Assembly (NCBI GenBank): GCA_026393755.1
Contig: JAPKZO010000018.1
Coordinates: forward strand, 3,418-35,417
Direction: 5' to 3'
DNA from: Acidobacteriota bacterium
GTDB taxonomy: Bacteria; Acidobacteriota; Vicinamibacteria; Vicinamibacterales; JAKQTR01
DNA: 32,000 nt
In this document: piece after piece, positions 80 through 14,095 of the stretch
How the letters are laid out: each line of letters starts with the position of its first letter
How positions within the stretch are numbered: position 1 is the first letter of the stretch
Program-made: the position numbers and the translations under genes
Notes under the pieces: generated by a model
The model's input: only the letters and a program-made list of their open reading frames with translations
What the model was told of the DNA's origin: nothing
The model's database searches: none

Positions 80-172
80 GCGGTGCGGAAATTCACTCCG
101 GGAGTAACGTTCCCGTTGTGGAGATCTGCCCCGCGGGTTGGCAGAGGTGTGACTGACACTGGAGGATCGAAG

Positions 173-3100
173 GTGCTCAAGCGAATTGCGGCGGCTGGTT
201 GCGTTCTCGCCCTCGTCATCACAGGTGCCGTCCAGGTCCGCGGCAGGACCGCCGTGGGGGCGCGGGCCCCGGAACTGGAACGGCTGGGGTCGTTGTTTGA
301 CCTGGCGCGGGGGGCAGTGCGCGACACGAACGCAGACGGCCTCGCCGACAGCGTCGTGGCCCGGGTGATCGTGCCCGCAACACCCGCGATTGAGGATATC
401 GAGGCCGCCACCAACATCGCGGGGCGTCTTGGTTTCGAGACGACGGCGATGACGCTGCCGCTCGTCGTGCGGGACGATCAAGTCGCCGACGCCAGCGCGA
501 TTGATCTTCCAATCTTCGTCGGGCGCGACAACGCGTTCGTGAAGAAACTGGCCGAGGCGGGCGCCATCGACCTCAAGGCGCTCAAGCCCGGACAGGGCCT
601 GGTCAGCGTGGTCCAGTCCCCAGGCGGCGGCCACGACGGCATCATCATCGTCGGTGGCGACGGCGCCGGAACGCTGGCGGCTGCCGTGGAACTGGCGGCG
701 CGGCTGCCTCGGCTGTGGACCATGTCAGGGGTGACACTGACGGGCATTGAACAGCAGGCGGCGCAGTACATGAAGGCCAGCGGCCTCGCCGTCTCGCGTG
801 CGGCCGTCGTCGCGATGGTGGTTGACAGCGACCGGCGCGGCATCGCCTCGGTCACAGTCAACCTGCACGTCAAAGGGACCGACGCGGCGCGCGCGGTCAA
901 GCTGCTCGAGGCGCTCGATCTCGCGCACCGGCGCGGGCAGCTGCCCGGCATGCTCAACTTCGCCGAAGCGGCGACCACCCTTGTCGCCGTGGTCGCCGAT
1001 GGCAAGACGGCGGGCCGGGCCTCCGTGCGCCGCTCCGGCCTCAATGGCCGCACGCTGACCCCACCGGTCGATCCTGAGGAATTCATGCCTGACCCCGCGG
1101 CCGCGTCCTCCGCAGGCGGCGGGCGCGGAGCCGGAGGTGGAGGTGCCGCGGGAGCGGCCGGAGCCGCAGCGCCCACTGGAACCTCGAGCGCGCAATCGGG
1201 AAGCGGGGCTGCCAGCGGCGCGGCGGCCGCGCCAGAGGGCGGCGGGGCAGGCGGTGGCGTCGCGGCAGTGCCGGTGACGGCCAAGTTATTCGATCTGTCA
1301 AACACGTATTCGAATGACGGCTGGTTCGGAGACGCGTTCGTCGATCTGATTCCCGACCGGACCGAAACCACGCTCGTGCTCGGCAACGCGCAGGACTCAC
1401 TGGGTGCGGCGCATATCGCGGCGCGCCTTGGCCTTGAATCAACGGGCATCAGTCTGCCAATCACCAAGACGGACGACAAGGTCAGGGATCCCGCTCGCGA
1501 GCCGAGTCCCATCCTGATCGGGCGCACGAACACATACGTGCAGCAGCTCGTGAAGATCGGCAGGGCGCGGCTCGACGACCTTCAGCCCGGCCAGGGCACG
1601 ATCCAGATCGTGCCCCGCGCCTTCGGCGTGGCAACGGCGACTGTCGTTGCCGGCGCCGATCAGGCCGGCACCGACGCCGCGAGTCTCTATCTGGCGCGAC
1701 GGGCGCCGTACTTGTGGGACATCGCTCGCGGCGCGTTTTCCTACGATGACCTGATCACCGAAGCGACTCGCTTTCTGGGCGGGAAGAGCGGCGCGGGGCA
1801 GGCTGCGCAGGCGGTCCAGGAGCTCGGGTCCCTTCTCGACGGTCTCAAGGGCAAGAAGGTCGAAACGCTGGACGCCAAGCTGTACCTGGAGAAGGGCGAC
1901 GCCGCGTTTGCGAAATACCTGGCCGGCCAGGCGACCCAGGCGCTCCCCGGAGCGAAGGTGAACGTGACCAGCCAGGGCGTCACCGATCCCGTGCCGGTCT
2001 TCGAGGACAAGCCGGAGATTCCGTGGGAGGTCGACGAGTTCTGGGCGAAGTTCAAGGCCGACGTGCTCCCCAAGGTCAAGGCCGGTTCGACCGTCGACCT
2101 CGAGGTCAGGCTCAGCGAGCCGCCCGAGATCCGCAAGTCCCTCGTGGAGCAGGCGCAAGCGGAGCTGACCAAGGCTGGGGCGGTCAAGCCTCGCGTCAAG
2201 GTGCTCTCGGCCTACAAGCAGGGCTATCTCTGGCTGACCGAACAGGTGATCCCCGAACTGAAGGGCAAGGGCGGGCGTTCGGTTCACATCAAGGTGCTGA
2301 CCCACAAGCCCGACTTCACCAAGAAGTACAAGTTTTACATGGTGCCGAGCCGCTGGCTCCAGGAACTGTTTCCCGTCGACGAGGTGTTCGAACGCGATCT
2401 CGGCATCCGGAAGGACGCGTTCACGATGGAACTGGTCGACGACCAGAAGGATATCTACGCGGTCGAGGTCGCAGATGGGGCCGGCAAGATCGTGTATCGC
2501 GGCACGTTCAACCCGAAGTTCGTCGAACGCGAGTACCTCGACAAGTTCCCGGGCTGGGCAAACGTCGAGGTGACCACCGGCTGGATCTCGGCCACGGTGA
2601 ACGGCCAGTCAGCCGTCGACGCGCGCATCGCGACTGATCCCGAACGGTTGTGGGACTACTACCAGGCGAAGGTTCTGCCGAAGGTGTACGACCACGTGAT
2701 GAAGGTGACGGCCGGCCGGCCCACCACCGACAAGCAACCCTTCTTCCGCGACCTCGACATCGAAGTGTGGATGAGCGAGCCGGACTTCCGGATTGGTGTC
2801 GACGAAGAACAGATTTCGTCGCTCGAGTCGCTCCACGAGGATCTCTACTTCGTCACGCTGGACTTCTTCAGCGCCATGGGCCGGACCATCACGCGGCAGC
2901 GGATTGGGGCGCCGGGGAAGATCCTGCCCATCATCCATCCGAGCCGTTCGGGCAAGCCCGGCTCGGCGCGAATTCTCTACGCGGCCAACGCGGCCACCGC
3001 CCCGCGGCTCGAGGTCACCTATAAGGAGAAGGACGGGGAGAAGCCGGTGTCGGTGACGCGCCCGCTCGGCCGGATCGACACGACCGCGCCCCAGGCGCTA

Positions 3101-4570
3101 CGGGCCGTCGTCCGCAACGATCGCGTGAGCGAAATCGAGCTGCAGGTCGAAGCCGGCAACGACCGGGAGGCGGCGCGCGCCGCTGACGCGCTCGACGGTC
3201 TCGCGCGTCTCCACGCCGCTGGCTTGTATCGCGAAGCGCTGTCGTTCGATCACGTGGACGGTGTCGCGATAGCGATCGGAATCAAGGAGATCCGCACTCG
3301 GCGCGTCATCAAGAACACCGGATCGACGCTGCCGTCGAACATCCGGACGGCGCAGCAGAAGCCGGCGCTGCCCGTGGTCACGTGGGACCATGTCATCAGT
3401 CCGGACGAAGCCGAGGACATCGTCAAGAAGCTCTCGGCCTACCCCGAAGTGAAGGCCTATCGGGTTGGCCAGTCGTACCGGGGCCGCGACATGTCTGTGA
3501 TGGAAGTCACGCTGCCGACGCCCAGCGAACTGGTCTCGGTGACGAAGTTGACGGCGTACAAGCCCACGATCTTCATGATGGGGCGGCAGCATGCCAACGA
3601 GGTGTCATCGACGAGCCACATCCTCCGGCTTGCTGAGCTGCTGGCGACCGATCCCAAGTACCGGGACATTCTCAAGAAGGTGAACGTCATCCTGGACCCG
3701 GTGATGAATCCGGATGGCGCGCAAATCGCGTTCGATCTGCAGAAGCTCACTCCGAATCACATGTTGCACGCCGGGCGCTACAGTGCGCTTGGCATGGACG
3801 TCACGTCGCGGCAGAACAACCTGCTGCCGGAAGCCGAGGTGGAGGGCCAGATCTGGCGCGAGTGGCTGCCCGACATCTACCTGAATCCCCACGGATACCC
3901 GTCGCACGAGTGGGTGCAGCAGTTCTCCGGCTACGTGTCGCCCCAGTTCCGCGCGTACTGGACGTCGCGGGGCTGGTACACGATGATCAGCGGCCTTCGC
4001 GACCCGCGGTACCCCGACATCCCGGAGGCGACCGCCGCGCTGCGGGAAGCGGTCGTTCGGGATGTGAGCGGCAATGCCGACGTGCGCGCCATGGATCTGC
4101 GCGCTCAGGCTCGCTACCTGCGCTGGGCGAACGGGTTCGGCACGCACGTCTACAACATTCAGGTGTACAAGGACACGACGATCTTCTTCAGCGATCCCGA
4201 ATCGGGCGAGTTGCGCGGAAGCCGCCGGGCGCCGGCCACGCCCCAGGCTGGTCAGAGCGCCCAGGGAGGAGGCCGCCGGGGAACCATGGGTTCGTTCCCG
4301 CAGGTCACGTTCAACAGCGGGATGACGGAAGCGCCGGACGAAACCGCCCAGGGCCCATGGTTGAACCTGGTGACCAAGGCCGGCTTCTCGTTCCTGATGG
4401 CGCACGTGACGTACCTGCAGGACGGACACTACAAGATCGAACGCATCGAAGAGGCCGGGCAGCGCGATGGCTCGACGCTGACCGTGCTGCGCGTCAGGCC
4501 AGTGATGCCTGGGCGGACTCCTGCCGTTGCGGGGGCCCCCAGAAAGGCCGCGCCGACCGACGCCAGGTAG
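173..4570 (+). CDS. Very large secreted M14-family zinc carboxypeptidase-like protein (about 1465 aa). The catalytic domain is at the extreme C-terminus, after a long N-terminal region of unknown function.
   Basis: The ORF track opens at GTG 83. GTG 173 has a strong GGAGGA Shine-Dalgarno (161-166) at 6-nt spacing and yields an N-terminal signal-like peptide, (M)LKRIAAAGCVLALVITGAVQ. M14 motifs: HANE zinc ligands (3590-3601), NPDG, NPHGYPSHEW (second His ligand region) and GMTEAPDE (catalytic Glu region). Confidence 0.8.
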   Translation: MLKRIAAAGCVLALVITGAVQVRGRTAVGARAPELERLGSLFDLARGAVRDTNADGLADSVVARVIVPATPAIEDIEAATNIAGRLGFETTAMTLPLVVRDDQVADASAIDLPIFVGRDNAFVKKLAEAGAIDLKALKPGQGLVSVVQSPGGGHDGIIIVGGDGAGTLAAAVELAARLPRLWTMSGVTLTGIEQQAAQYMKASGLAVSRAAVVAMVVDSDRRGIASVTVNLHVKGTDAARAVKLLEALDLAHRRGQLPGMLNFAEAATTLVAVVADGKTAGRASVRRSGLNGRTLTPPVDPEEFMPDPAAASSAGGGRGAGGGGAAGAAGAAAPTGTSSAQSGSGAASGAAAAPEGGGAGGGVAAVPVTAKLFDLSNTYSNDGWFGDAFVDLIPDRTETTLVLGNAQDSLGAAHIAARLGLESTGISLPITKTDDKVRDPAREPSPILIGRTNTYVQQLVKIGRARLDDLQPGQGTIQIVPRAFGVATATVVAGADQAGTDAASLYLARRAPYLWDIARGAFSYDDLITEATRFLGGKSGAGQAAQAVQELGSLLDGLKGKKVETLDAKLYLEKGDAAFAKYLAGQATQALPGAKVNVTSQGVTDPVPVFEDKPEIPWEVDEFWAKFKADVLPKVKAGSTVDLEVRLSEPPEIRKSLVEQAQAELTKAGAVKPRVKVLSAYKQGYLWLTEQVIPELKGKGGRSVHIKVLTHKPDFTKKYKFYMVPSRWLQELFPVDEVFERDLGIRKDAFTMELVDDQKDIYAVEVADGAGKIVYRGTFNPKFVEREYLDKFPGWANVEVTTGWISATVNGQSAVDARIATDPERLWDYYQAKVLPKVYDHVMKVTAGRPTTDKQPFFRDLDIEVWMSEPDFRIGVDEEQISSLESLHEDLYFVTLDFFSAMGRTITRQRIGAPGKILPIIHPSRSGKPGSARILYAANAATAPRLEVTYKEKDGEKPVSVTRPLGRIDTTAPQALRAVVRNDRVSEIELQVEAGNDREAARAADALDGLARLHAAGLYREALSFDHVDGVAIAIGIKEIRTRRVIKNTGSTLPSNIRTAQQKPALPVVTWDHVISPDEAEDIVKKLSAYPEVKAYRVGQSYRGRDMSVMEVTLPTPSELVSVTKLTAYKPTIFMMGRQHANEVSSTSHILRLAELLATDPKYRDILKKVNVILDPVMNPDGAQIAFDLQKLTPNHMLHAGRYSALGMDVTSRQNNLLPEAEVEGQIWREWLPDIYLNPHGYPSHEWVQQFSGYVSPQFRAYWTSRGWYTMISGLRDPRYPDIPEATAALREAVVRDVSGNADVRAMDLRAQARYLRWANGFGTHVYNIQVYKDTTIFFSDPESGELRGSRRAPATPQAGQSAQGGGRRGTMGSFPQVTFNSGMTEAPDETAQGPWLNLVTKAGFSFLMAHVTYLQDGHYKIERIEEAGQRDGSTLTVLRVRPVMPGRTPAVAGAPRKAAPTDAR
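293..1730 (+). repeat. Protein-level tandem duplication inside the M14 gene. Copy A is about 293-725 and copy B about 1286-1730. They are separated partly by a Gly/Ala/Ser-rich low-complexity linker (about 1083-1270).
   Basis: Both copies start with LFDL. Shared pattern: IAxRLGxExT..LP....DD.V.D......PI..GR.N..V..L...G...L..L.PGQG....V ... V.G.D.AGT.AA..LA.R.P.LW. Confidence 0.7.
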
Positions 4571-4630: not shown

Positions 4631-5416
4631 ATGGAACCAGCAGCCACCCGTCCGCGCATCGATTTCAACTGCGATATGGGCGAGAGCTTCGGCGCCTACA
4701 CGCTCGGGCTCGACGACCAGATCATCGCGTCGATCACTTCGGCCAACATCGCGTGCGGGTTCCACGCCGGCGATCCGGCGTGGATGCGGCGGACGGTCGA
4801 CGTGGCCGAACAGCATGGTGTCGGCGTGGGCGCACATCCCGGCTTTCCGGATCTGCGCGGGTTTGGCCGGCGGAACCTCGCCGCGTCGCCGAGTGAGGTC
4901 CGCGACGACCTGGTCTATCAGATTGGCGCGCTGACCGCGTTTACGCGCGATAAGCGCCTGCAGCACGTCAAGCCGCACGGCGCGCTCTACAACATGGCCG
5001 TCGAGAACGATGCGCTGGCGACCGCGATCTGCCAGGCGGTCGTCGAAGTCGATCCGCGCATGATTCTGGTGGTGTTGTCCGGATCGCGATGGATTGGGCT
5101 CGCCCAACGCCTGGGGCTGCGAGCCGCCCGCGAGGTCTTCGCTGATCGCGCCTTCAATGCCGATGGCACGCTGGTCCCGCGGTCGAAGCCGGGTTCGGTC
5201 CTGCACGACGCCCACGAAGTGATCGACCGCAGCCTGCGCCTGGTGACAGAAGGCAAGGTGGTCGCCATCACCGGCGAAGTCATCGAACTGCAGGCCGACA
5301 CGATCTGCCTGCACGGCGACACCCCCGGGGCCGTGCACCTGGCCGCCGCGCTCAGAGAGGCGTTCGAGCGCGCCGGGGTGGAACTCCTGCCCCTGGGCCG
5401 TCTGCTCGCCGCTTAG
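4631..5416 (+). CDS. pxpA: 5-oxoprolinase subunit A (LamB/YcsF family lactam hydrolase component)
   Basis: Strong resemblance by eye along the whole length to E. coli YbgL/PxpA: IDFNCDMGESFG, SANIACGFHAGDP, GAHPGFPD, HVKPHGALYN, EVFADRAFNADGTLVPRS, ICLHGDTPGAV. Confidence 0.9.
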   Translation: MEPAATRPRIDFNCDMGESFGAYTLGLDDQIIASITSANIACGFHAGDPAWMRRTVDVAEQHGVGVGAHPGFPDLRGFGRRNLAASPSEVRDDLVYQIGALTAFTRDKRLQHVKPHGALYNMAVENDALATAICQAVVEVDPRMILVVLSGSRWIGLAQRLGLRAAREVFADRAFNADGTLVPRSKPGSVLHDAHEVIDRSLRLVTEGKVVAITGEVIELQADTICLHGDTPGAVHLAAALREAFERAGVELLPLGRLLAA

Positions 5417-5419
5417 CTC

Positions 5420-6148
5420 ATGTACGACGGCCCCAGGTTCCTCACCGCCGGCGATCGCGCCGTGGTCATCGAGTACGGCGACTCCATCGACGAAGCCACC
5501 AGTCTCCGCGTCCGACGGCTTGCCGCCGCCCTCTCGCTGCGCCACGAGTCGGGCATCATCGAGATCGTGTCCACGTATCGATCGCTGATGGTGCACTACG
5601 ACCCGCTGCGGCTGCCACGAGCCCACGTGGACGCCATCGTGCTCGACGCGGAGCAGCACCTGGCCGACGTCACGCTGCCTCCGTCTCGTGTGTTCGACAT
5701 TCCCACCGTCTATGGCGGCCGCTACGGCCCGGATCTCGAAGATGTGGCCGCTTGGGCGGGAATTGCCGCCGACGAGGTCGTCGCGCTGCACTGCGGACGG
5801 GAGTACCTGGTCTACATGATGGGGTTCATGGCGGGCTTCCCGTATCTGGGAGGCCTGTCGCCACGGATCGCGATGCCGCGGCTTCCGAGCCCGCGTACGA
5901 AAGTGCCCACCGGATCGGTTGGGATTGCGCAGGAACAGACGGGCATCTATCCAACCGAGACACCTGGCGGGTGGCGGCTGATCGGCTGGACCCCGGTACG
6001 CATTTTCGACGCGGCCAACGATCCGCCGGTGTTGTTCGAGGCGGGAGACTACATTCGGTTCGTGCCGGCGACAAGCGAGCAGACGCAAGCCATCGCCCGG
6101 CAGATTGCGGCTGGTACATGGACGCCAACGGTGCGACACCGTGAGTGA
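5420..6148 (+). CDS. pxpB: 5-oxoprolinase subunit B (KipI / allophanate hydrolase subunit 1 family)
   Basis: Motifs matching YbgJ/KipI: PTVYGGRYGPDL, GFMAGFPYLGGL, PTGSVGIAQEQTGIYPTETPGGWRLIG. Starts 3 nt after the pxpA stop. Confidence 0.9.
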   Translation: MYDGPRFLTAGDRAVVIEYGDSIDEATSLRVRRLAAALSLRHESGIIEIVSTYRSLMVHYDPLRLPRAHVDAIVLDAEQHLADVTLPPSRVFDIPTVYGGRYGPDLEDVAAWAGIAADEVVALHCGREYLVYMMGFMAGFPYLGGLSPRIAMPRLPSPRTKVPTGSVGIAQEQTGIYPTETPGGWRLIGWTPVRIFDAANDPPVLFEAGDYIRFVPATSEQTQAIARQIAAGTWTPTVRHRE

Positions 6149-6155
6149 AGAGCGT

Positions 6156-7223
6156 ATGCGGACGATTGAGGTGCTCGAGGGGGGCTTCTTTACGACGGTC
6201 CAGGATCTCGGGCGCGACCAGTACCAGCGGTTCGGCGTGGCGGTGTCCGGCGCGATGGACAGCTTCGCGCTTCGCGCGGCTAATCGGCTCGTGGGGAACG
6301 CCGACACCGCCGCCGGCCTTGAAGTCACGATGCTCGGTCCAGAGGTGCGGTTTGCTCAAGCGGCCCGCGTGGCGGTGACGGGTGCTGATCTCGGCGCATG
6401 CGTGGATGGACGACCGATTCAGACGTGGCGCACGGTTGCCGTTCGCGCGGGATCGGTGCTGTCGTTTTCTGGCCAGCGCGACGGCATGCGGGCCTACCTC
6501 GCCGTGGACGGCGGGATCGATGTGCCAGTCGTGCTTGGCAGCCGCTCGACCTCCACCCGGACCGGGCTCGGCGGATTCGACGGGCGGCCGCTGCGTGCGG
6601 GAGACACGCTGCCGCTTGGCGAGCAACCGCCTGGGAAAGGCGCTCTCAGGCGTGCGATGCGAACTTCGGCCATTCCATCCTACGGCCACAGCCATCACGT
6701 GCGTGTCGTCCTTGGTCCGCAGGATGAGGCGTTTTCCGAGGAGGGACAGTTGACGTTCCTCACGGCCGAATACACGATGACGCCGCAGTCGGACCGCATT
6801 GGCTGCCGGTTCGACGGCCCCCGCGTCGCCCATCGCACGAACGCCGACATCGTGTCCGACGGCACAACGCTTGGCATCGTGCAGGTCAGCGGCGACGGCA
6901 TGCCGATTGTCCTGATGGCGGATCGGGGCACGACCGGCGGTTACACGAAGATTGCGACAGTCATTTCGGCGGACGTCTGGCGGCTCGCACAGGCTGCGCC
7001 CGGCGACCGCGTCCGCTTCGGCGCCGTCGATCTCGACCAGGCCTGCGCGCGGTTGCTCGAGATGGAAGCTGTGCTCGATGCGCTGGTGACGCCGGAACGG
7101 GCCAGGCCGGCAGGACCGGTTGAGGACGTGTACGACGAGGACGCTGGAAGCGAATTGGCCGCCGACGGGTTCGGCGAACTGGCCGACGCGCTCGAACAGA
7201 CGGGACTGGGGAGGGATCAATGA
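6156..7223 (+). CDS. pxpC: 5-oxoprolinase subunit C (KipA / allophanate hydrolase subunit 2 family)
   Basis: MRTIEVLEGGFFTTVQDLGR, then SGAMD, QSDRIGCRF, GIVQVSGDGMPIVLMADRGTTGGYTKIATVISAD. ATG 6156 is preferred over the track start 6105, which overlaps pxpB. 7-nt gap after the pxpB stop. Confidence 0.9.
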   Translation: MRTIEVLEGGFFTTVQDLGRDQYQRFGVAVSGAMDSFALRAANRLVGNADTAAGLEVTMLGPEVRFAQAARVAVTGADLGACVDGRPIQTWRTVAVRAGSVLSFSGQRDGMRAYLAVDGGIDVPVVLGSRSTSTRTGLGGFDGRPLRAGDTLPLGEQPPGKGALRRAMRTSAIPSYGHSHHVRVVLGPQDEAFSEEGQLTFLTAEYTMTPQSDRIGCRFDGPRVAHRTNADIVSDGTTLGIVQVSGDGMPIVLMADRGTTGGYTKIATVISADVWRLAQAAPGDRVRFGAVDLDQACARLLEMEAVLDALVTPERARPAGPVEDVYDEDAGSELAADGFGELADALEQTGLGRDQ

Positions 7224-8470
7224 CGACAGCGGTTGACGCGTCCGGCTGGTTCGGATGGTGGCGGGCCGGCACACCCGAAGGGCGGCGGGCACTGGTTGCG
7301 GGCGGCCTGGGCTGGATGCTCGACAGCTTCGACGTGATGCTCTATGCGCTTGTGCTGGCGACCCTCATCAAGGACCTCGGCATCAGCAAGGACACCGCGG
7401 GCCTGCTGGGCTCGATCACGCTGGTGGCCTCCGCAGTCGGGGGGCTGGTGTTCGGCATTGTCGCCGATCGATACGGGCGGACACGGTCCCTGATTGCCAG
7501 CATCCTCATCTATTCCGTGTTCACCGCCATGTGCGGTTTCTCGCAGACGGTGATGCAGTTGGCCGTCTTCCGCATCTGCCTCGGCCTCGGGATGGGCGGC
7601 GAATGGGCGAGCGGCGCCGCGCTGGTGTCGGAAACCTGGCCTGCCGAGTATCGAGGCAAGGCGCTCGGCTTCATGCAAAGCGCGTGGGCGATTGGCTACG
7701 CCGCCGCAGCCCTGGTGGTGGCCATCGTGATGCCCATCTGGGGATGGCGAGCCGTGTTCTTCGTCGGTGTGCTGCCCGCCCTGCTCACCATCTGGGTGCA
7801 GAAGCGGGTTGCCGAACCGGCCATGTGGAACGAGCGCCGAGGCCGCGCGGCCGCCTCGCGCGCGGGTCTCAGTGACATCTTCAAGGGCGATCTGCTGCGC
7901 CTCACGGTGCCGGTCACGCTCATGAACGCCTGCACGATGTTCGCGTGGTGGGGGTTCAATCAATGGATCCCGGCATACCTGTCGCTTCCGGTGGCGGACG
8001 GCGGCATCGGCCTCAGCACGCGCGTGATGTCCGGATTCATCATCGCGATGCAGGTCGGGATGTGGTTCGGCTACGTGTCGTTCGGGTTCATCAGCGATGC
8101 CATCGGACGCAAGCGTGCATACGTGATCTACGTGCTCATGGCTGCGGTACTGCTGCTCGGCTACTCGGTGACGCGGACGCCGGCGGTGCTCCTCGTGCTC
8201 GGCCCGGTCACGGCGTTTTTTGCGACGGGCTATTTCACCGGGTTCGGGGCCGTCACCGCCGAGATCTATCCGACCGAGATTCGCGCAACCGCCCAGGGCT
8301 TCACCTATAACATCGGGCGCCTGGGCAGCGCCGTGGCGCCGTACGCGGTCGGGTCCCTTGCTGCGGGCCGTGGATTCGGCGTCGCGTTTTCCGTCGCTGC
8401 CGTGGCCTTCGTGCTCGCGGCAGTCGCCTGGATCTGGATCCCGGAGACCAAGGGCCGCGCCCTGGCCTGA
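7220..8470 (+). CDS. MFS transporter (12-TM metabolite:cation symporter type); substrate unknown
   Basis: Hydrophobic multi-helix protein with an MFS-like N-terminus GWMLDSFDVMLYALVL and a DRYGR loop motif. Its start codon overlaps the pxpC stop (ATGA, 7220-7223). Confidence 0.85.
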   Translation: MTTAVDASGWFGWWRAGTPEGRRALVAGGLGWMLDSFDVMLYALVLATLIKDLGISKDTAGLLGSITLVASAVGGLVFGIVADRYGRTRSLIASILIYSVFTAMCGFSQTVMQLAVFRICLGLGMGGEWASGAALVSETWPAEYRGKALGFMQSAWAIGYAAAALVVAIVMPIWGWRAVFFVGVLPALLTIWVQKRVAEPAMWNERRGRAAASRAGLSDIFKGDLLRLTVPVTLMNACTMFAWWGFNQWIPAYLSLPVADGGIGLSTRVMSGFIIAMQVGMWFGYVSFGFISDAIGRKRAYVIYVLMAAVLLLGYSVTRTPAVLLVLGPVTAFFATGYFTGFGAVTAEIYPTEIRATAQGFTYNIGRLGSAVAPYAVGSLAAGRGFGVAFSVAAVAFVLAAVAWIWIPETKGRALA

Positions 8471-8487: not shown

Positions 8488-8504
8488 CTGTGACACAATC
8501 ACAG
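8488..8504. promoter_or_regulatory. AT-rich 6-bp/5-nt-spacer inverted repeat CTGTGA-CACAA-TCACAG, ending 1 nt before the radical SAM start codon
   Basis: Perfect arms at 8488-8493 and 8499-8504. It sits in the 35-nt MFS/radical SAM spacer. No canonical Shine-Dalgarno at normal spacing (only AGG directly touching the ATG). Confidence 0.35.
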
Positions 8505-8505
8505 G

Positions 8506-9939
8506 ATGCGGGTCGTCCTGCTCTCGACGTATGAACTCGGGCGCCAGCCCTTCGGTCTCGCCTCGCCTGCGGCGTGGTTGAGGCAGGCCGGCGCAGAGGT
8601 CGTCGTGCAGGATCTGTCGCGCCAGCGACTCGACGAGGACGTCGCGCGTGGCGCGGACGTGGTTGCGTTCTACCTCCCCATGCACACGGCCACGCGACTT
8701 GCGCTGCCGGTCATCGATCGCGTCCGAGCACTCAATCCGGGAGCACGACTGTGCGCGTTTGGGCTGTACGCGCCGCCCAATGCGGGGCTGTTGCGCGCGC
8801 ATGGCATCGACGCGACGTACGGGGCGGAAGTCGAAGCGGACCTGGTCGAGTACGCGCGTGGAAACCACGGGACGGAACGCGTCGAGGGCGCGACAGACGC
8901 TACGGCAGGCCCGGCGCCTGACTGTCGCAGCCTGGCGCGACCGATCGCACGGCTCAATTTTCTCGTGCCTGATCGAGCCGGCCTCCCTGGGCCGTCCTGC
9001 TATGCGTCGTTGCAGCGCGATGATTCGTCTGTTGTCGCCGGGTACACCGAGGCCAGCCGGGGTTGCAAGTATTTCTGCCGCCACTGCCCGGTGGTGCCGG
9101 TGTACCGCGGACAGATTCGCACGGTGCCCACCGGGGTGGTGCTCGCCGACATCCGGAATCAGGTGGCTTCCGGCGCGGCGCACATCACCTTCGGGGACCC
9201 CGATTTCTTCAACGGGCCGGCGCACGCTCGGCGTACCGTCACGGCGTTGCACGATGAGTTTCCTCACCTGACCTACGACGTCACGATCAAGATTTCTCAT
9301 CTGCTGCGGCACCAGTCACTGCTCGGGCTGCTGCGAGACACGGGCTGTCTGTTTGTGACGACGGCGGTCGAGTCGATCGACGACGGGATCCTCGCCACGC
9401 TGGACAAAGGGCACACAGCTGCCGACGTCGAGCGCACGGTGTCCCTGTGCCGTCAGCACGCACTGGCACTGGCGCCGACGTTTGTGCCGTTTACGCCGTG
9501 GACGTCGCTGGACGGATACATAGAGCTGCTGTCGGCCATACGGCGTCTTGATCTGGTCGAGCACGTGGCGCCGATTCAGCTCGGTATCCGCCTGCTCGTT
9601 TCGAACGGATCACGACTCCTCGACCTGCCCGACATCCGCACGCTCGTGGGACCGTTCGATCCCGTGGCGCTCGCGTACCCGTGGGCCCACCGCGACGCCC
9701 GCGTCGACGCGCTGCAGAAAGTGATCATCGCAACCGTCGGATGCCATGCCGGGGCTGGCAGAGGCGAGGTGTTCGACCGCGTCTGGCGGCTGGCCTGCGA
9801 ATTCGCCAACGCGGATCCGGACGCCGGCCGAGCGCCAGTTACGCTGGATGGGGACTATCGACGAACCTCGGTGCCGTACCTCAACGAGCCCTGGTACTGT
9901 TGAGCGGAACCCACCGAAGGGCAGGTGGCTCTTCTTTGA
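8506..9939 (+). CDS. Radical SAM enzyme with an N-terminal B12-binding-like domain. Probable selenoprotein: the in-frame UGA at 9901-9903 is read as Sec, giving a C-terminal ...EPWYC-U-AEP-TEGQVALL tail.
   Basis: CxxxCxxC cluster motif GCKYFCRHCP (Cys codons between 9064 and 9087). Rossmann-like N-terminus MRVVLLSTYELGRQP. The track ORF stops at TGA 9901, but the next codons are GCG GAA CCC (A-E-P) and the next stop is TGA 9937-9939. From memory, the C-U-A-E-P motif matches the family named CUAEP/CCAEP-tail radical SAM (seleno)protein. A SECIS-like hairpin follows the UGA. Confidence 0.8.
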
Positions 9940-9945
9940 TGGGTT
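9908..9945 (+). other. Candidate bacterial SECIS stem-loop directly 3' of the UGA codon
   Basis: Outer stem AACCCA (9908-9913) pairs with UGGGUU (9940-9945). Inner stem GAAGGG (9916-9921) pairs with CUCUUC (9929-9934, one G-U). The 7-nt apical loop CAGGUGG (9922-9928) places a GGU about 24-26 nt after the U of UGA. An alternative smaller hairpin is CCACC (9911-9915) with GGUGG (9924-9928). Folded by eye only. Confidence 0.45.
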
Positions 9946-9949
9946 ACGG

Positions 9950-11302
9950 ATGAAACGGGTCTTGCTGCTTGCAACAACGACCGGCTATCAGACACGCTCG
10001 TTCGGCGACGCCGCGTCGGCGTTGGGTGTCGAGCTGATATTCGGGCTCGACCGATGCCGTGGGCTCGAGGACCCGTGGGGCGATCACTCGCTGGCGGTTC
10101 GGTTCTACGACGACCCCCGCTCGGTCGCGGCCATCGCGTCGGCGTCGCAGGATGGCCCCATCTCTGGCATCCTCGCTCTTGGCGACCAGCCCACGGTGCT
10201 GGCCGCCCGCGCGGCGGAACTGTTGCACCTGCCGTTCCATTCGCCTGCCGCCGCGAGAACCAGCCGAAACAAGCTCGACAGCCGCAATGCCCTGATGGCA
10301 GCAGGTCTGCGCGTGCCGTGGTTTGCGGCGGCCGACATTGATGACGACCACGATCGACTGGCGTCGCGCGTGCCGTACCCGTCGGTCATCAAGCCGCTCG
10401 CGCTCTCGGGCAGCCGGGGTGTGATTCGCGTGGACAACCCGCACGCCTTTTCCACCGCGTTCCGAAGAGTACGTCAGATTCTGCGGGCGCCAGACATCAA
10501 GACGATGAAGGATCCGGCGCTTCGGCAGGTGCTGATCGAAGGCTATATCCCTGGGGTGGAGTTCGCTGTTGAAGGCCTGATGCATCATGGGGTGTTTGAG
10601 GCGCTTGCGCTCTTCGACAAACCCGATCCGCTGGATGGCCCCTTCTTCGAAGAGACGATCTATGTAACTCCGTCCGCCCACGACGCCGCCATCCAGGAAG
10701 CCGTCCTCACGGCGGTCGCCGCGGCTACCGCTGCGATCGGACTGTCGCACGGGCCGGTGCACGCGGAATGCCGTGCGAACGCGGATGGCGTCTTCGTCCT
10801 CGAGGTGGCGGCACGCCCGATTGGCGGACTGTGCGCACGGGCGCTGCGATTCGATGTCCCTCGAGCCGGGATCGATCCCGGAACGCGCTCAGGACCCATC
10901 GGCTCGCGAGAGACTGGACTGCTTGCTCAGGGCAGGCAGACAGAGGGTCACACGATATCGCTGGAAGAGTTGCTGCTGCGTCACGCGCTTGGTGAAGATG
11001 TCCGAGGCTGCCGTCGGGAAGCCTGCGCGTCGGGCGTGATGATGATGCCCATTCCGAACGCCGGCGTGTACCGTGGCGTGAGAGGCGTCGCTGAGGCTCG
11101 TGCCGTCGCGCTTGTGGAAGACGTCATCATCACGGCCAAGCCCGGCCAGCGCCTGGTGCCGCTGCCGGAAGGCGCGAGCTACCTGGGCTTCATGTTTGCG
11201 ACGGCCGGCCTCGGCGAGGACGTCGTGGCCGCGCTGCGAGCGGCGCACGGCAGACTGCACTTTGACATCGATCGCGAGCTGCCGCTGGCGCCAAGCGGAT
11301 GA
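9950..11302 (+). CDS. ATP-grasp domain protein (about 450 aa) resembling L-amino-acid ligase / carboxylate-amine ligase enzymes
   Basis: Pre-ATP-grasp N-terminus MKRVLLLATTTGYQTRSF, SRNKLDSRNALMAAGLRVP, YPSVIKPLALSGSRGV, LIEGYIPGVEFAVEG, HGPVHAECR...VFVLEVAARPIGG. ATG 9950 is chosen because the track start 9746 lies inside the radical SAM coding region. Starts 10 nt after the extended radical SAM stop. Confidence 0.8.
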   Translation: MKRVLLLATTTGYQTRSFGDAASALGVELIFGLDRCRGLEDPWGDHSLAVRFYDDPRSVAAIASASQDGPISGILALGDQPTVLAARAAELLHLPFHSPAAARTSRNKLDSRNALMAAGLRVPWFAAADIDDDHDRLASRVPYPSVIKPLALSGSRGVIRVDNPHAFSTAFRRVRQILRAPDIKTMKDPALRQVLIEGYIPGVEFAVEGLMHHGVFEALALFDKPDPLDGPFFEETIYVTPSAHDAAIQEAVLTAVAAATAAIGLSHGPVHAECRANADGVFVLEVAARPIGGLCARALRFDVPRAGIDPGTRSGPIGSRETGLLAQGRQTEGHTISLEELLLRHALGEDVRGCRREACASGVMMMPIPNAGVYRGVRGVAEARAVALVEDVIITAKPGQRLVPLPEGASYLGFMFATAGLGEDVVAALRAAHGRLHFDIDRELPLAPSG

Positions 11303-11363: not shown

Positions 11364-11639
11364 CTATTTCTGCCGCTGGGGCACGTACTCTGGCGGCAGG
11401 GCAGAGTTGTCTCCGAAGAAGAACTCCTCCATCTGCCTCGCCACCAGTTCCTGCGCTTCCTTTTGAAACGGCAGCAGCCGGTACTCGTTGAGGATCATCT
11501 TCATCCGCTCTTCCCACATCTTCCAGGCTTCGGCCGACACGTTCTCGAAGATGCGCTGGCCAAGCTCACCAGGCCACGGGGCCGCATCCAGGCCAGGCAG
11601 TGGCTTCCCCAACTTGACGCATGTGACCGTCCGGCTCAT
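11364..11639 (-). CDS. yggX: Fe(2+)-trafficking / oxidative-damage protection protein YggX family (91 aa)
   Basis: MSRTVTCVKLGKPLPGLDAAPWPGELGQRIFENVSAEAWKMWEERMKMILNEYRL aligns by eye with E. coli YggX (PGELGKRIY..SKEAW..W...QTMLINE). GAGGAGA Shine-Dalgarno upstream of ATG 11639. The track start 11774 overlaps the upstream gene. Confidence 0.85.
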   Translation of the reverse strand: MSRTVTCVKLGKPLPGLDAAPWPGELGQRIFENVSAEAWKMWEERMKMILNEYRLLPFQKEAQELVARQMEEFFFGDNSALPPEYVPQRQK

Positions 11640-11647
11640 ATCTCTCC

Positions 11648-13663
11648 TCACATTTCCCCGAGCTTCTCCACTTGCACCCGTGCATCGTTGAAGCAAGCGC
11701 CCCCGCCGATATCCGACAACGTGTCTGGCGACAGGGCGTTGGCGGTGGACCCGTTCTCCGTGCTCCGGCTCCACAGCCCCTTGGGAAGTGACACGGTGCC
11801 GGGCCGGACAATCGGCGAAACGCTGACGAGGCAGCGCACTTCGCCGAGGGCGTTGAACACGCGAATCCTGTCCCCGTCCGCGATCTCCCGGTGCCGCGCA
11901 TCTTCTGGATGGAGCGAGAGCTCGGCAGGGCGATCGTTCAGCTCACCGAGCGTCGAACTGATCGTCTTCTCGGTCGACGGCGAAATCATCGCGAGCGGAA
12001 ACGGGTCGGTCACGGGATCGTCCTGATAGGCGTAGAGCCCGAGCGGCGCTTCGCGATCCAGTCGCTCCGGAAACAGGTCGATCCTGGCGTCGGGTGTGCG
12101 CGGGAAAACGTCGACAAACTGCACCGGCGCGAAACCGCACGGTGGCACCGGCTGTCCCTGATGCTTCAGCGCGCCGCTGATCGACTCGGGAAGTTCGTCG
12201 AGAATCTTCATCATCATCTCGACGTCGGTGACCGGGTCGCCCTCCTGCGACAGACCCAGGCGTTGTTCCAGATCAGCAAAGACCTCGACGTTCGGACGGG
12301 CGTCGCCGACCGCATCGATGACAGGCTGCGTCATCTGCAGGTTGATCGGGCCATACGCCCTCGCCAGATCGTAGGCTTCGAGAAACGTGGTGGCTGGCAG
12401 CACGACATCCGCGTACATCGCCGAGTCGGTCATCACCTGGTCGAAGACGACCGTCGTCAGATCGTCGCGCAGCAGTCCGCGCCGCACGCGATTCTGGTCG
12501 GGCATGGTCGCCAGCGGGTTGCAGTTGTAGACGAACAACACCGTCACCGGCGGTTGAGGACTGTCGGTAAGGACGCGCCCGAGGTGGTTCATGTTGATGA
12601 CGCGGGTGGACGGCGCATCCGCCCCAATCCAGGTGTTGGTCAGTCCCCACGAGCCCGAATTGCTCATCGAGTAGCCGCCGCCGCGCACGCCGAACTTTCC
12701 TGCCACGGCCGGCAACGCGAGAATCGCCATCGCGGCGTTGCCGCCATTCCTGTTCCGCTCGAGGCCCCAGCCGCACCGAATCAGGGCCGGCGACGATTCG
12801 GCATACATCGCGGCGAAGCGACGCAGGTCATTGGCCGGCACGCCCGCGACCTCTGCGGCACGCTGCAACGTCCACGGCGCCGCCCGTTCCCTCAGGCGGT
12901 CGACCCCGGTGGCGTGTTCATCGAGGAACGCCGTGTCGGCAAGGCCGCCTTCAAACAGGTACCGATGCAGCGCCAGCGCGACCGCGACATCGGTGCCTGG
13001 CCGGACCGGCAGGTGCAGATCGGAGAGGCGCGCCAGTTGGGTGTTGCGGGGATCGATCACGACCAGCCCGGCGCCGTTGCGCTGTGCCTCCCGGATGTGG
13101 GGAACCAGGTGAATGGCGGACGCAGACGGGTTCGCGCCCCACACGACAATGAGGCGGGCATGAGCGTAGTCCGCGTAGGTCACCGACGGCATCTTGCCGT
13201 AGAGCGCCTGGTTGGCCGCGCCCGTGGTCGACGCGCAGACCGTGCGGTCGAGGCGCGAGGCACCAAAGCGCCGGAACAGCCGCATGTCGGTCGTATCCTG
13301 CGTCACGAGCCCGTTCGACCCTCCGTAGTAGAACGGCAGGACCGACTCGGCGCCATGCCGATCTCTGGCCTCGATCATCTTCTGCGCGACGTGCTCCAGG
13401 GCTTCGTCCCACTCGACCCACCGGAACTGACCAGCACCCTTCGGGCCCGTGCGAATCCCCGGCCGCAGCAGGCGATCCCGGCCGTAGACGCGGCTGGCAA
13501 ACTGGCGGACTTTGGCGCAGATGAAGCCGTGCGTCACCGGGTGTTCGTGACTGCCGTCGAGCTTGCTGAGCCGGCCATCCTCGATCGTCGCAGTCATGCT
13601 GCACGAGTCGGGGCAGTCGAGCGGGCACGCCGTCCTGACGCTATGAGTGTGTCTCGGGCTCAT
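11648..13663 (-). CDS. Molybdopterin (bis-MGD) oxidoreductase, MopB superfamily, with N-terminal 4Fe-4S motif; substrate unknown
   Basis: N-terminal CPLDCPDSCSM...GFICAK cysteine cluster. Typical MopB blocks: VVWGANP, IDPR.T, and a C-terminal molybdopterin dinucleotide-binding barrel (LSLHPEDA..R.I.DGD.IRVFN..G). No in-frame stop. Confidence 0.85.
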   Translation of the reverse strand: MSPRHTHSVRTACPLDCPDSCSMTATIEDGRLSKLDGSHEHPVTHGFICAKVRQFASRVYGRDRLLRPGIRTGPKGAGQFRWVEWDEALEHVAQKMIEARDRHGAESVLPFYYGGSNGLVTQDTTDMRLFRRFGASRLDRTVCASTTGAANQALYGKMPSVTYADYAHARLIVVWGANPSASAIHLVPHIREAQRNGAGLVVIDPRNTQLARLSDLHLPVRPGTDVAVALALHRYLFEGGLADTAFLDEHATGVDRLRERAAPWTLQRAAEVAGVPANDLRRFAAMYAESSPALIRCGWGLERNRNGGNAAMAILALPAVAGKFGVRGGGYSMSNSGSWGLTNTWIGADAPSTRVINMNHLGRVLTDSPQPPVTVLFVYNCNPLATMPDQNRVRRGLLRDDLTTVVFDQVMTDSAMYADVVLPATTFLEAYDLARAYGPINLQMTQPVIDAVGDARPNVEVFADLEQRLGLSQEGDPVTDVEMMMKILDELPESISGALKHQGQPVPPCGFAPVQFVDVFPRTPDARIDLFPERLDREAPLGLYAYQDDPVTDPFPLAMISPSTEKTISSTLGELNDRPAELSLHPEDARHREIADGDRIRVFNALGEVRCLVSVSPIVRPGTVSLPKGLWSRSTENGSTANALSPDTLSDIGGGACFNDARVQVEKLGEM

Positions 13664-14095
13664 CTAGAGCTGTTGCATCCGTCCGGCCTTGCGATCCCAG
13701 TACTCGACGACGGTCGGAACAACCTTGATCATCGACAGTTCGGCGTCGTCGGCACCGCCCGTGAACCACTTGGCAAACGTCGGGTTCCACATCTGCCGGG
13801 CTCTGGCCACGTCACGCACCATCACCGCGTTGCCCGATACCGTGACGAACCGATCCTCGGGCGCCGAGACGTAGGTGACGTTGACGTGACTGTTGCCGTC
13901 GATCTCCTGGGCGACCGGTGAGGTCGCGCGAGAGAAGAACCACAAAGATCCGTCGAACGCGTCGCCGATCGCCACCATCGGCCGGCTCCGCAGCCCGCCG
14001 CCGGCGGTAACAGTCGTAAACATCGCGAACGGAATCTCGTGAATCAGGTCCTTGAAGCGCTGCACGTCGTACTGACCCTGGGTCTGGTCCGGCAT
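13664..14095 (-). CDS. Pyridoxamine 5'-phosphate oxidase-like FMN-binding protein (general stress protein 26 type)
   Basis: 143 aa. FAMFTTV...LRSRPM...WFFS...V.V.Y pattern typical of the PNPOx-like split-barrel family. GGGAGGG Shine-Dalgarno upstream. Its stop TAG directly abuts the ATG of the molybdoenzyme (TAGATG). Confidence 0.7.
   Translation of the reverse strand: MPDQTQGQYDVQRFKDLIHEIPFAMFTTVTAGGGLRSRPMVAIGDAFDGSLWFFSRATSPVAQEIDGNSHVNVTYVSAPEDRFVTVSGNAVMVRDVARARQMWNPTFAKWFTGGADDAELSMIKVVPTVVEYWDRKAGRMQQL

Follow-up and report, generated by a model that had tools for sequence, protein, structure and literature searches.

Gene organisation of the cassette

The 32,000-nucleotide stretch analysed here (the window; contig JAPKZO010000018.1, positions 3,418 to 35,417, from a soil Acidobacteriota bacterium) carries at 8,488–11,302 a two-gene cassette, in which a radical S-adenosylmethionine (SAM) selenoprotein is paired with an ATP-grasp enzyme of the L-amino-acid ligase (LAL) type, an arrangement that recurs across phyla. 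The frame of the radical SAM gene runs from ATG 8506 to ...LNEPWYC, the last Cys codon (TGT 9898–9900) being followed by TGA 9901–9903, and proceeds past this codon as AEPTEGQVALL up to TGA 9937–9939 (Table 1). Ten nucleotides (9940–9949) then separate this stop from the ATG of the ATP-grasp gene, whose start at 9950 was set by orthologue alignment; a longer frame from 9746 was discarded, as the orthologues begin MKRVLLL. An earlier reading of the letters alone (the sequence-only reading) had reported a near-contiguous pair with a 10-nt gap after an extended stop, which agrees with these coordinates. Its description of the cassette holds throughout, apart from a start at 8488 that lies 18 nt 5′ of the ATG, and the CxxxCxxC SAM cluster motif it pointed out is present as C187/C191/C194. 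A promoter and terminator scan gave no signal beyond shuffled expectation.

Table 1 Coordinates of the cassette, its partner genes and side features. Positions refer to the window unless another locus (L number) or replicon is named
Feature	Coordinates	Strand	Basis or remark
CUAEP-tail radical SAM selenoprotein gene	8506..9939	+	477 codons plus stop; UGA 9901–9903 read as Sec466
CxxxCxxC codons (C187/C191/C194), radical SAM [4Fe–4S] motif	9064..9087	+	Sequence reading, Pfam Radical_SAM
Vicinal Cys465–Sec466 codons (TGT TGA), motif E-P-W-Y/F-C-U/C-A-E-P-T	9898..9903	+	Sequence and locus comparison
SECIS-like hairpin, GAAGGGC / GCUCUUC stem, AGGUG loop	9916..9934	+	Begins 13 nt 3′ of UGA
LAL-type ATP-grasp enzyme gene, 450 aa	9950..11302	+	Pfam, 3VOT, AF2, orthologue alignment
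YggX-type Fe(2+)-trafficking / oxidative-damage protection protein gene	11364..11639	-	NF003817 116 bits (cutoff 74), Pfam Iron_traffic; convergent with the ATP-grasp gene
LAL-type ATP-grasp genes of Bacillota arsenic islands	L171 444–1667; L173 3635–4858; L174 3436–4668		
DUF169 (COG2043) genes	L055 9529–10242; L071 9504–10256; L080 9508–10224; L161 4276–5004; L163 2257–2964		
Annotated CUAEP/CCAEP-tail radical SAM gene, Thermomicrobium roseum DSM 5159	Megaplasmid NC_011961.1 796591–798027 (L169 6935–8371); protein WP_012643191.1		
Eighth distant member and its surroundings	L168 5001–11440		Tail NFCCAEPTDEK
Nfu/ATP-grasp/radical SAM module with lipB–lipA and further genes	L163 6456–11404; L167 6532–11413		
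Apparent operon ending in YggX	11364–14095	-	
PNPOx-like gene	13664–14095	-	
Molybdopterin oxidoreductase gene	11648–13663	-	Best match Fdh-alpha, 250 bits, below cutoff
pxpA, pxpB, pxpC and MFS gene	4631–8470		Directly 5′ of the cassette
M14 zinc carboxypeptidase and S-layer-like domain protein gene	83–4570		1495 aa

Family and predicted fold of the radical SAM protein

When Cys is put in place of Sec, the radical SAM protein reaches 601.5 bits, above the cutoff of 500, on the NCBIfam model NF040546 ("CUAEP/CCAEP-tail radical SAM (seleno)protein"), residues 3–475 aligning with profile positions 1–467 of 468. Score, C-U/C-A-E-P motif and CxxxCxxC motif all agree with this family, Pfam PF04055 (Radical_SAM) is above threshold, and an identical protein is held at NCBI under the NF040546 family name, from an Acidobacteria metagenome-assembled genome. 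The protein is no orphan but a clean and ordinary member of a curated, functionally uncharacterised family, whose radical SAM assignment and selenoprotein nature were already on record. Haft (bioRxiv 10.1101/2022.07.06.499078) had already pointed to the family as CU-motif selenoproteins that are uncharacterised, and a literature search returned no paper on the function of the CUAEP/CCAEP family, the sole mention found calling it uncharacterised.

The second-best model is that of ArsL (NF040542; 246.9 bits, under the cutoff of 450), the remaining radical SAM models staying below 35 bits. ArsL is thus the nearest curated family by a wide margin and the only close characterised relative; a natural CC variant of the present family shares 34% identity with an ArsL-like protein bearing an RCCIKC tail, across 407 aa. 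An exhaustive profile-free search yielded 556 clusters (50% identity) at E ≤ 1e-30. Of the full-length representatives, 31 terminate in W[YF]C, 32 carry CCAEP and one is ArsL-like. Universal conservation across 67 representatives is limited to the cluster cysteines (CxxxCxxC in 66/67) and Cys465 (100%), which is followed by a selenocysteine (Sec) or Cys codon wherever the next codon is readable. The tail motif E-x-W-[YF]-C-[UC]-A-E-P-T is retained down to ~33% identity, and a distant clade (33–40% identity) keeps RLTE[PA]WFCCAEPT, with Cys rather than Sec in 104 of its 113 members. Cys281 was considered as a universal third ligand and rejected, being conserved in 69% of the representatives and replaced by Leu in the ArsL-like protein.

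An AlphaFold2 (AF2) model of a natural Cys-variant orthologue (predicted local distance difference test, pLDDT, 86) has a Rossmann-like N-terminal domain and a radical SAM barrel in common with its best PDB matches, the B12-binding-domain radical SAM enzymes AprD4 (template modelling score, TM, 0.72), OxsB and TsrM, at 12–21% identity. The B12-binding-like N-terminal domain of the sequence-only reading is therefore borne out by the fold but not by Pfam, the B12-binding match staying sub-threshold at 20.2 bits vs. 32.1, and there is no indication of cobalamin use. The last ~30 residues, including the tail motif, are predicted to be disordered (pLDDT <50).

Selenocysteine recoding of the in-frame UGA

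The UGA at 9901–9903 is attributed, on comparative grounds, to selenocysteine, most probably recoded via the downstream hairpin; a Sec-containing enzyme had also been proposed in the sequence-only reading. The window codons 9898–9912 (TGT TGA GCG GAA CCC) read C-U-A-E-P, and the same motif is found in 80 genome loci that were retrieved by means of the family alignment. In these loci, the codon after the conserved Cys465 is TGA in 66 cases and TGC or TGT in 14, and AEP[TSN]xxQ always follows in frame. The corresponding codon in 53 metagenome loci is TGA in 29 and a Cys codon in 24.

The hairpin folds in the window as a 7-bp helix (9916–9922 with 9928–9934). Over 65 distinct TGA sequences the helix is 80% paired, compared to 44–54% in registers slid by 1–3 columns, although the count is lowered by loci in which the register is shifted by one and the loop reads AGUU. 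Both sides have changed in four of the seven pairs, and the observed covariation was reached by none of 500 column shuffles. The median folding energy of the region is -11.1 kcal/mol after TGA (n = 93) and -7.8 kcal/mol after Cys codons (n = 38; p = 8e-10), and several Cys variants have a short tail without the hairpin (CAEPMEQF-stop). A scan of the window against Rfam gave no family match, so that the assignment as a selenocysteine insertion sequence (SECIS) rests on covariation and not on a curated model.

A genuine stop, with a protein ending at Cys465, would agree with the practice of gene callers, which end nearly all database homologues at ...WYC; the annotated end is ...EPW[YF]C, and a few instead read ...WYCCAEP.... 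It would also agree with the lack of tRNA-Sec and of sel genes such as selA, selB and selD in the 32-kb window and 60 related loci, a negative that is uninformative at the 32-kb scale. Conversely, orthologues exchange TGA for Cys codons, the AEP[TS]xxQ frame is retained 3′ of the codon in every locus, the hairpin covaries and is specific to TGA loci, and NCBI curates the family as a selenoprotein. Termination at this codon is poorly supported and, in our view, hardly credible.

The predicted ATP-grasp ligase

The second protein matches three Pfam models above their gathering thresholds, ATPgrasp_N (30.4 bits), ATP-grasp_4 (99.3 bits) and LAL_C2 (53.6 bits). Its best solved relative by sequence is the Bacillus licheniformis L-amino-acid ligase BL00235 (3VOT; phmmer E 5e-32), and an AF2 model (pLDDT 85.7) retrieves 3VOT, BacD and RizA at the top of the Foldseek ranking. 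BL00235, BacD/YwfE and RizA share the three Pfam domains and the fold (TM 0.75–0.83 to 3VOT), whereas identity to 3VOT is only ~23%, and the window ligase differs from them by an insert. This disordered segment (residues 307–331, window 10868–10942) lies between the ATP-grasp core and LAL_C2 and varies widely in sequence and length by lineage. The orthologues, which databases name merely "ATP-grasp domain-containing protein", share without exception the Lys, Glu and Asn residues that characterise ATP-grasp catalysis. Named LAL equivalogs are missed by far (BacD NF053745, 40.3 vs. 850 bits; DdaF NF041595, 37 vs. 840 bits). Based on domain architecture and predicted fold, the protein is a putative L-amino-acid ligase, in line with the sequence-only reading, which had also set it apart from the short ATP-grasp enzymes of ribosomally synthesised and post-translationally modified peptides (RiPPs); the 450-aa LAL architecture agrees with that distinction. 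A graspetide (RiPP-type) system was likewise ruled out, as the 10-nt gap is too small for a peptide ORF and the loci share no conserved small ORF. A plasmid search with the ATP-grasp protein returned distant, unrelated matches alone, e.g. in Pantoea beside an EamA transporter.

Conservation of the gene pair across genomes and phyla

Linkage of the two genes was analysed from both sides. The radical SAM gene is the anchor of the 80 genome loci, of which 73 have a flank long enough for assessment; the ligase gene is nearby in 64 of these, immediately downstream on the same strand in 62 and just upstream in two, and absent in nine. An independent metagenome set was anchored on the ligase, and the radical SAM gene lies directly upstream in 45 of the 57 loci whose upstream sequence extends over 600 nt or more. 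Intergenic gaps are short, with a median of ~106 nt counted from the Cys codon and thus including the Sec tail. Eight distant family members (from Nitrospiria, Solirubrobacteraceae, Blastocatellia and others) were inspected by called genes and Pfam. The three-domain ligase adjoins the radical SAM gene in seven, mostly in the order ligase then radical SAM and once in convergent orientation. The adjacency is kept across at least five phyla despite altered order and orientation, which argues for a functional pair. The neighbourhood test suggested along with the sequence-only reading is thereby positive from both anchors and across phyla, and the pair is confirmed as a real, recurrent and still uncharacterised cassette.

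Mere synteny, i.e. two genes of unrelated processes that happen to be neighbours in Acidobacteriota, would account for the loci in which the partner is not nearby (9/73 and 12/57, respectively), and LigD-like, aconitase and molybdenum oxidoreductase genes in the vicinity are indeed plain synteny. It does not account for an adjacency that outlasts changes in order and orientation across at least five phyla, nor for the short gaps or the LAL-type ATP-grasp gene that is also included in the sister ArsL clusters of Bacillota (see below). We regard the absence of a functional link as poorly supported and very improbable. No shared replacement gene was detected upstream of the ligase in the 12 loci without the radical SAM gene, YggX alone persisting there. 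Candidate alternative partners in the nine genome loci with the radical SAM gene only are unrelated (GFO/IDH/MocA oxidoreductase, GltB-like, sulfite-oxidase-like, GH39, DinB). A fusion of radical SAM and ATP-grasp domains was not found among nine over-long representatives.

Two further loci were noted in this survey. The eighth distant member (L168) has a divergent tail and a biosynthetic-cluster-like context, its neighbours being a PhyH dioxygenase, a GNAT protein, a KAS-III-like protein, an amidohydrolase and an AMP-binding enzyme. On the Thermomicrobium roseum DSM 5159 megaplasmid, the radical SAM gene is flanked by a pyridoxal phosphate-dependent aminotransferase and a major facilitator superfamily (MFS) transporter.

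A probable third member for iron or Fe–S trafficking

A recurrent third partner, missed in the sequence-only reading, is the gene for the YggX-type iron-trafficking protein. It is located within 600 nt of the ligase gene, in either orientation, in 51/80 genome and 59/80 metagenome loci (44 convergent and 15 co-directional in the latter), while a few loci of the Methylomirabilota type have it 5′ of the radical SAM gene. In other phyla, Fe–S carriers with Nfu/NifU domains take its place (seven of the eight distant loci, as well as L055 and L077). YggX is a probable accessory member of the module. According to our literature search, the conserved module (ligase plus Fe or Fe–S carrier, sometimes with DUF169) and its spread across phyla have not been described.

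DUF169 (COG2043) is an occasional fourth gene in or beside the module in several phyla. A gene of this type has been reported in one preprint beside hgcA-like genes of Nitrospina, together with MerR.

Comparison with ArsL and other characterised systems

ArsL, the radical SAM enzyme of arsinothricin biosynthesis, cleaves SAM into methylthioadenosine (MTA) and a 3-amino-3-carboxypropyl (ACP) fragment. An organometallic Fe–C(gamma) species is formed, and ACP is transferred to As(III) held by three cysteines of the C-terminal RCCLKC tail (10.1101/2024.02.01.577332; 10.64898/2026.04.29.721666). Removal of the tail abolishes the product while SAM cleavage is kept and the Fe and S content is unchanged; without arsenite, the enzyme yields 2-aminobutyrate, i.e. 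ACP quenched by hydrogen (10.1101/2024.02.01.577332; 10.64898/2026.04.29.721666). The unchanged Fe and S content implies that the homologous tail binds no auxiliary cluster. PaArsL co-purified with As. To our knowledge, use of the ACP half of SAM has so far been demonstrated for no CxxxCxxC radical SAM enzyme other than ArsL.

The window protein shares with ArsL the Rossmann-like N-terminal domain, the CxxxCxxC barrel, a variable linker and a tail of the vicinal Cys–Cys type, and Sec in the CUAEP family sits where ArsL binds its substrate. There are also differences. The ArsL model cutoff is not reached, the tail reads WYC-U-AEPT instead of RCCLKC and thus offers two soft ligands compared to three, Sec is used, the partner genes encode Fe or Fe–S carriers, and arsM, arsQ, arsN and ars resistance genes are absent nearby. 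No clustering with arsM, arsQ or ars resistance genes was found in the window or in 168 related loci.

On plasmid-borne arsenic islands of Bacillota (Bacillus cereus, Priestia aryabhattai, Alicyclobacillus acidocaldarius), the gene for the RCCLKC-tail protein is accompanied by a LAL-type ATP-grasp gene (ATP-grasp_4 and LAL_C2), whose product and the window ligase share 24% identity (E 4e-16). A gene of the CMD family precedes the ATP-grasp gene and a CobW GTPase gene follows arsL, whereas a Pseudomonas arsQ–arsL–arsM cluster (L172) is without the ligase. Thus, the combination of an ArsL-type radical SAM enzyme with an amino-acid ligase recurs in the sister family. A literature search found no paper on ATP-grasp genes in arsinothricin clusters, and neither this parallel ligase nor the MerB fusion described below appears to have been described. 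The Bacillota ATP-grasp gene suggests that a peptide derivative of (hydroxy)arsinothricin exists that has not been described, and the same logic may expose unnoticed peptide derivatives of arsinothricin in this phylum.

One metagenomic protein (P0248; JGI metagenome 3300047160, 8.3-kb contig) combines a CCAEP-tail radical SAM part (51% identity to the window protein) with a MerB domain (alkylmercury lyase; MerB motif WCWCAWDAF), the two being joined in frame by a Pro-rich linker. It has no ATP-grasp gene nearby; a second, stand-alone MerB gene is situated 3.7 kb downstream, and no other MerB-like genes occur in 169 fetched loci. Although a single example, the fusion points to carbon–metal(loid) chemistry.

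Other systems resemble the window protein in part only. Besides ArsL, generation of an ACP radical from SAM by means of a [4Fe–4S] cluster is known solely for Dph2 of diphthamide biosynthesis, a pathway in which an ATP-dependent reaction subsequently amidates the ACP carboxylate. However, Dph2 has no sequence or fold relation to the window protein, lacks CxxxCxxC motif and TIM barrel, and modifies a protein histidine. The C-terminal CC pair of MerA shuttles a soft metal ion, and the GCUG tail of thioredoxin reductase shuttles electrons into a buried active site. Both are flexible C-terminal tails with adjacent thiol or selenol groups, a likeness of functional logic only, as folds and chemistry are unrelated, and it favours neither a substrate-carrier nor a redox reading of the Cys–Sec pair.

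Proposed pathway and alternative roles of the tail

We tentatively propose that a gamma-substituted 2-aminobutyrate arises by ArsL-type chemistry on the mobile Cys–Sec tail and is then joined by the ligase to a second amino acid; we put the probability of this reading at roughly 0.4. SAM would be cleaved into methylthioadenosine and an ACP fragment, radical or iron-bound. The disordered tail would carry the vicinal Cys–Sec pair into the active site, where the pair would present a soft acceptor atom, or itself act as the nucleophile, in the way that the RCCLKC tail of ArsL presents As(III). The resulting gamma-substituted 2-aminobutyrate would be a methionine- or glutamate-like non-proteinogenic amino acid, which the ligase might convert with ATP and a second amino acid into a dipeptide. 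YggX (here) or Nfu (in other phyla) would keep an oxygen-labile or turnover-damaged cluster loaded. The small-molecule, amino-acid-derived output suggested in the sequence-only reading stays the most plausible one. The gene structure, recoding signals, family membership, ligase fold and linkage across phyla were established here, whereas the regiochemistry of SAM cleavage, the part played by the tail, the acceptor and the substrates of the ligase are inferred.

Several observations weigh against this pathway. The case for ACP-type cleavage comes from a relative with 34% identity. Where ArsL offers three soft ligands the tail offers two, the extra core Cys281 being conserved in 69% of representatives, and selenocysteine is met more often in redox catalysis than in the binding of substrates. 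The partner gene is not local in nine genome loci and 12 ligase-anchored loci, and Chloroflexota/Thermomicrobiota, including Thermomicrobium roseum DSM 5159, have the radical SAM gene without an adjacent ligase. The MerB fusion is one metagenomic sequence, the sole case among 150 representatives. Moreover, the fetched neighbourhoods contain no ars or mer genes, no metalloid transport or resistance genes, no methyltransferase and no self-resistance acetyltransferase. With neither metalloid nor self-resistance genes nearby, a toxic-metalloid acceptor or an antibiotic product is without contextual support; the lack of ars and mer genes, methyltransferases, exporters and self-resistance genes argues against an arsinothricin-like toxic-metalloid antibiotic and favours a housekeeping metabolite.

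Two other roles of the tail were weighed. The Cys–Sec pair may serve as a hydrogen-atom donor or electron shuttle in radical chemistry (5′-deoxyadenosyl or ACP) on an organic substrate, quenching or re-reducing an intermediate; the selenenylsulfide so formed would be recycled by cellular reductants and the ligase would process an amino-acid product. Precedents exist in thioredoxin reductase, with its GCUG tail, and in ribonucleotide reductase, with a Cys pair at the C-terminus. Sec is typical of redox sites and is found at this position in most Acidobacteriota members (66/80 genome loci), the tail is predicted to be disordered and mobile (AF2), metalloid-handling genes were not seen in the neighbourhoods, and the 2-aminobutyrate formed by ArsL without arsenite (ACP plus hydrogen) would fit the quenching step. 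Against this, the equivalent tail of ArsL binds the substrate and is dispensable for SAM cleavage, Cys stands in for Sec in 104/113 of the distant clade as well as in 14/80 and 24/53 of the close sets, no thioredoxin or reductase partner recurs nearby, and the MerB fusion better suits metal handling. A redox tail is rather unlikely, though the internal reductant or thiol–selenol relay of the sequence-only reading, which is not the best-supported option given that the ArsL tail binds As(III), stays a live rival. Alternatively, the pair may help to bind a second or labile Fe–S (or Fe–Se) centre that donates S or Se to ACP, leading to (seleno)homocysteine-type products, with Nfu or YggX rebuilding the cluster at each turnover as NfuA does for LipA. 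Genes for Fe or Fe–S trafficking are the most consistent third neighbour (YggX in 51/80 and 59/80, Nfu in 7/8 distant loci, L055 and L077), and in L163 and L167 the module lies directly upstream of lipB–lipA. A sacrificial cluster is nevertheless quite improbable: the tail adds just two conserved ligands, tail-less ArsL retains equal Fe and S, and a carrier gene beside an oxygen-sensitive enzyme is explicable in aerobes without sacrificial chemistry.

A carbon–element bond other than C–As, formed by transfer of ACP to Se, S, Sb, Te or Hg on the Cys–Sec pair, would give a new organo-element amino acid and from it a dipeptide. We consider this doubtful but possible. If true, such an organo-element pathway, dependent on dedicated Fe–S resupply, would have a wide distribution among soil Acidobacteriota, Nitrospirota, Actinomycetota and Methylomirabilota. 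With its 556 clusters at 50% identity, the sister family of ArsL would extend ACP chemistry to new acceptors. The conserved ligase is an experimental handle, and the recurrent Fe–S carrier hints at an unusual cluster turnover. The family is amenable to experiment, since Cys variants occur naturally (e.g. at L012, L047 and L161) and one carrier, Thermomicrobium roseum DSM 5159, is in culture.

Further neighbouring genes

The genes for pxpA, pxpB and pxpC (5-oxoprolinase subunits), followed by an MFS transporter gene of the aromatic-acid/sialate-symporter type, are found directly 5′ of the cassette. The sequence-only reading had raised the question whether the MFS and pxp genes are conserved beside the radical SAM gene. 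Such a link was rejected: among the 80 loci PxpA occurs in one (L001) and pxp plus MFS in one other (L007), and the arrangement is local synteny only. Further upstream, a 1495-aa protein combines an M14 zinc carboxypeptidase domain with an S-layer-like domain.

Downstream, the PNPOx-like, molybdopterin oxidoreductase and YggX genes form an apparent operon on the minus strand. YggX begins 8 nt after the molybdopterin oxidoreductase gene and is probably co-transcribed with it. The cytoplasmic oxidoreductase belongs to no named subfamily; a molybdopterin oxidoreductase gene is next to the module in ~23 of 80 loci, which looks like lineage synteny. At L163 and L167, the Nfu/ATP-grasp/radical SAM module is followed directly, in the same orientation, by genes for a lipB-like protein, lipA and pyruvate dehydrogenase E1/E2.

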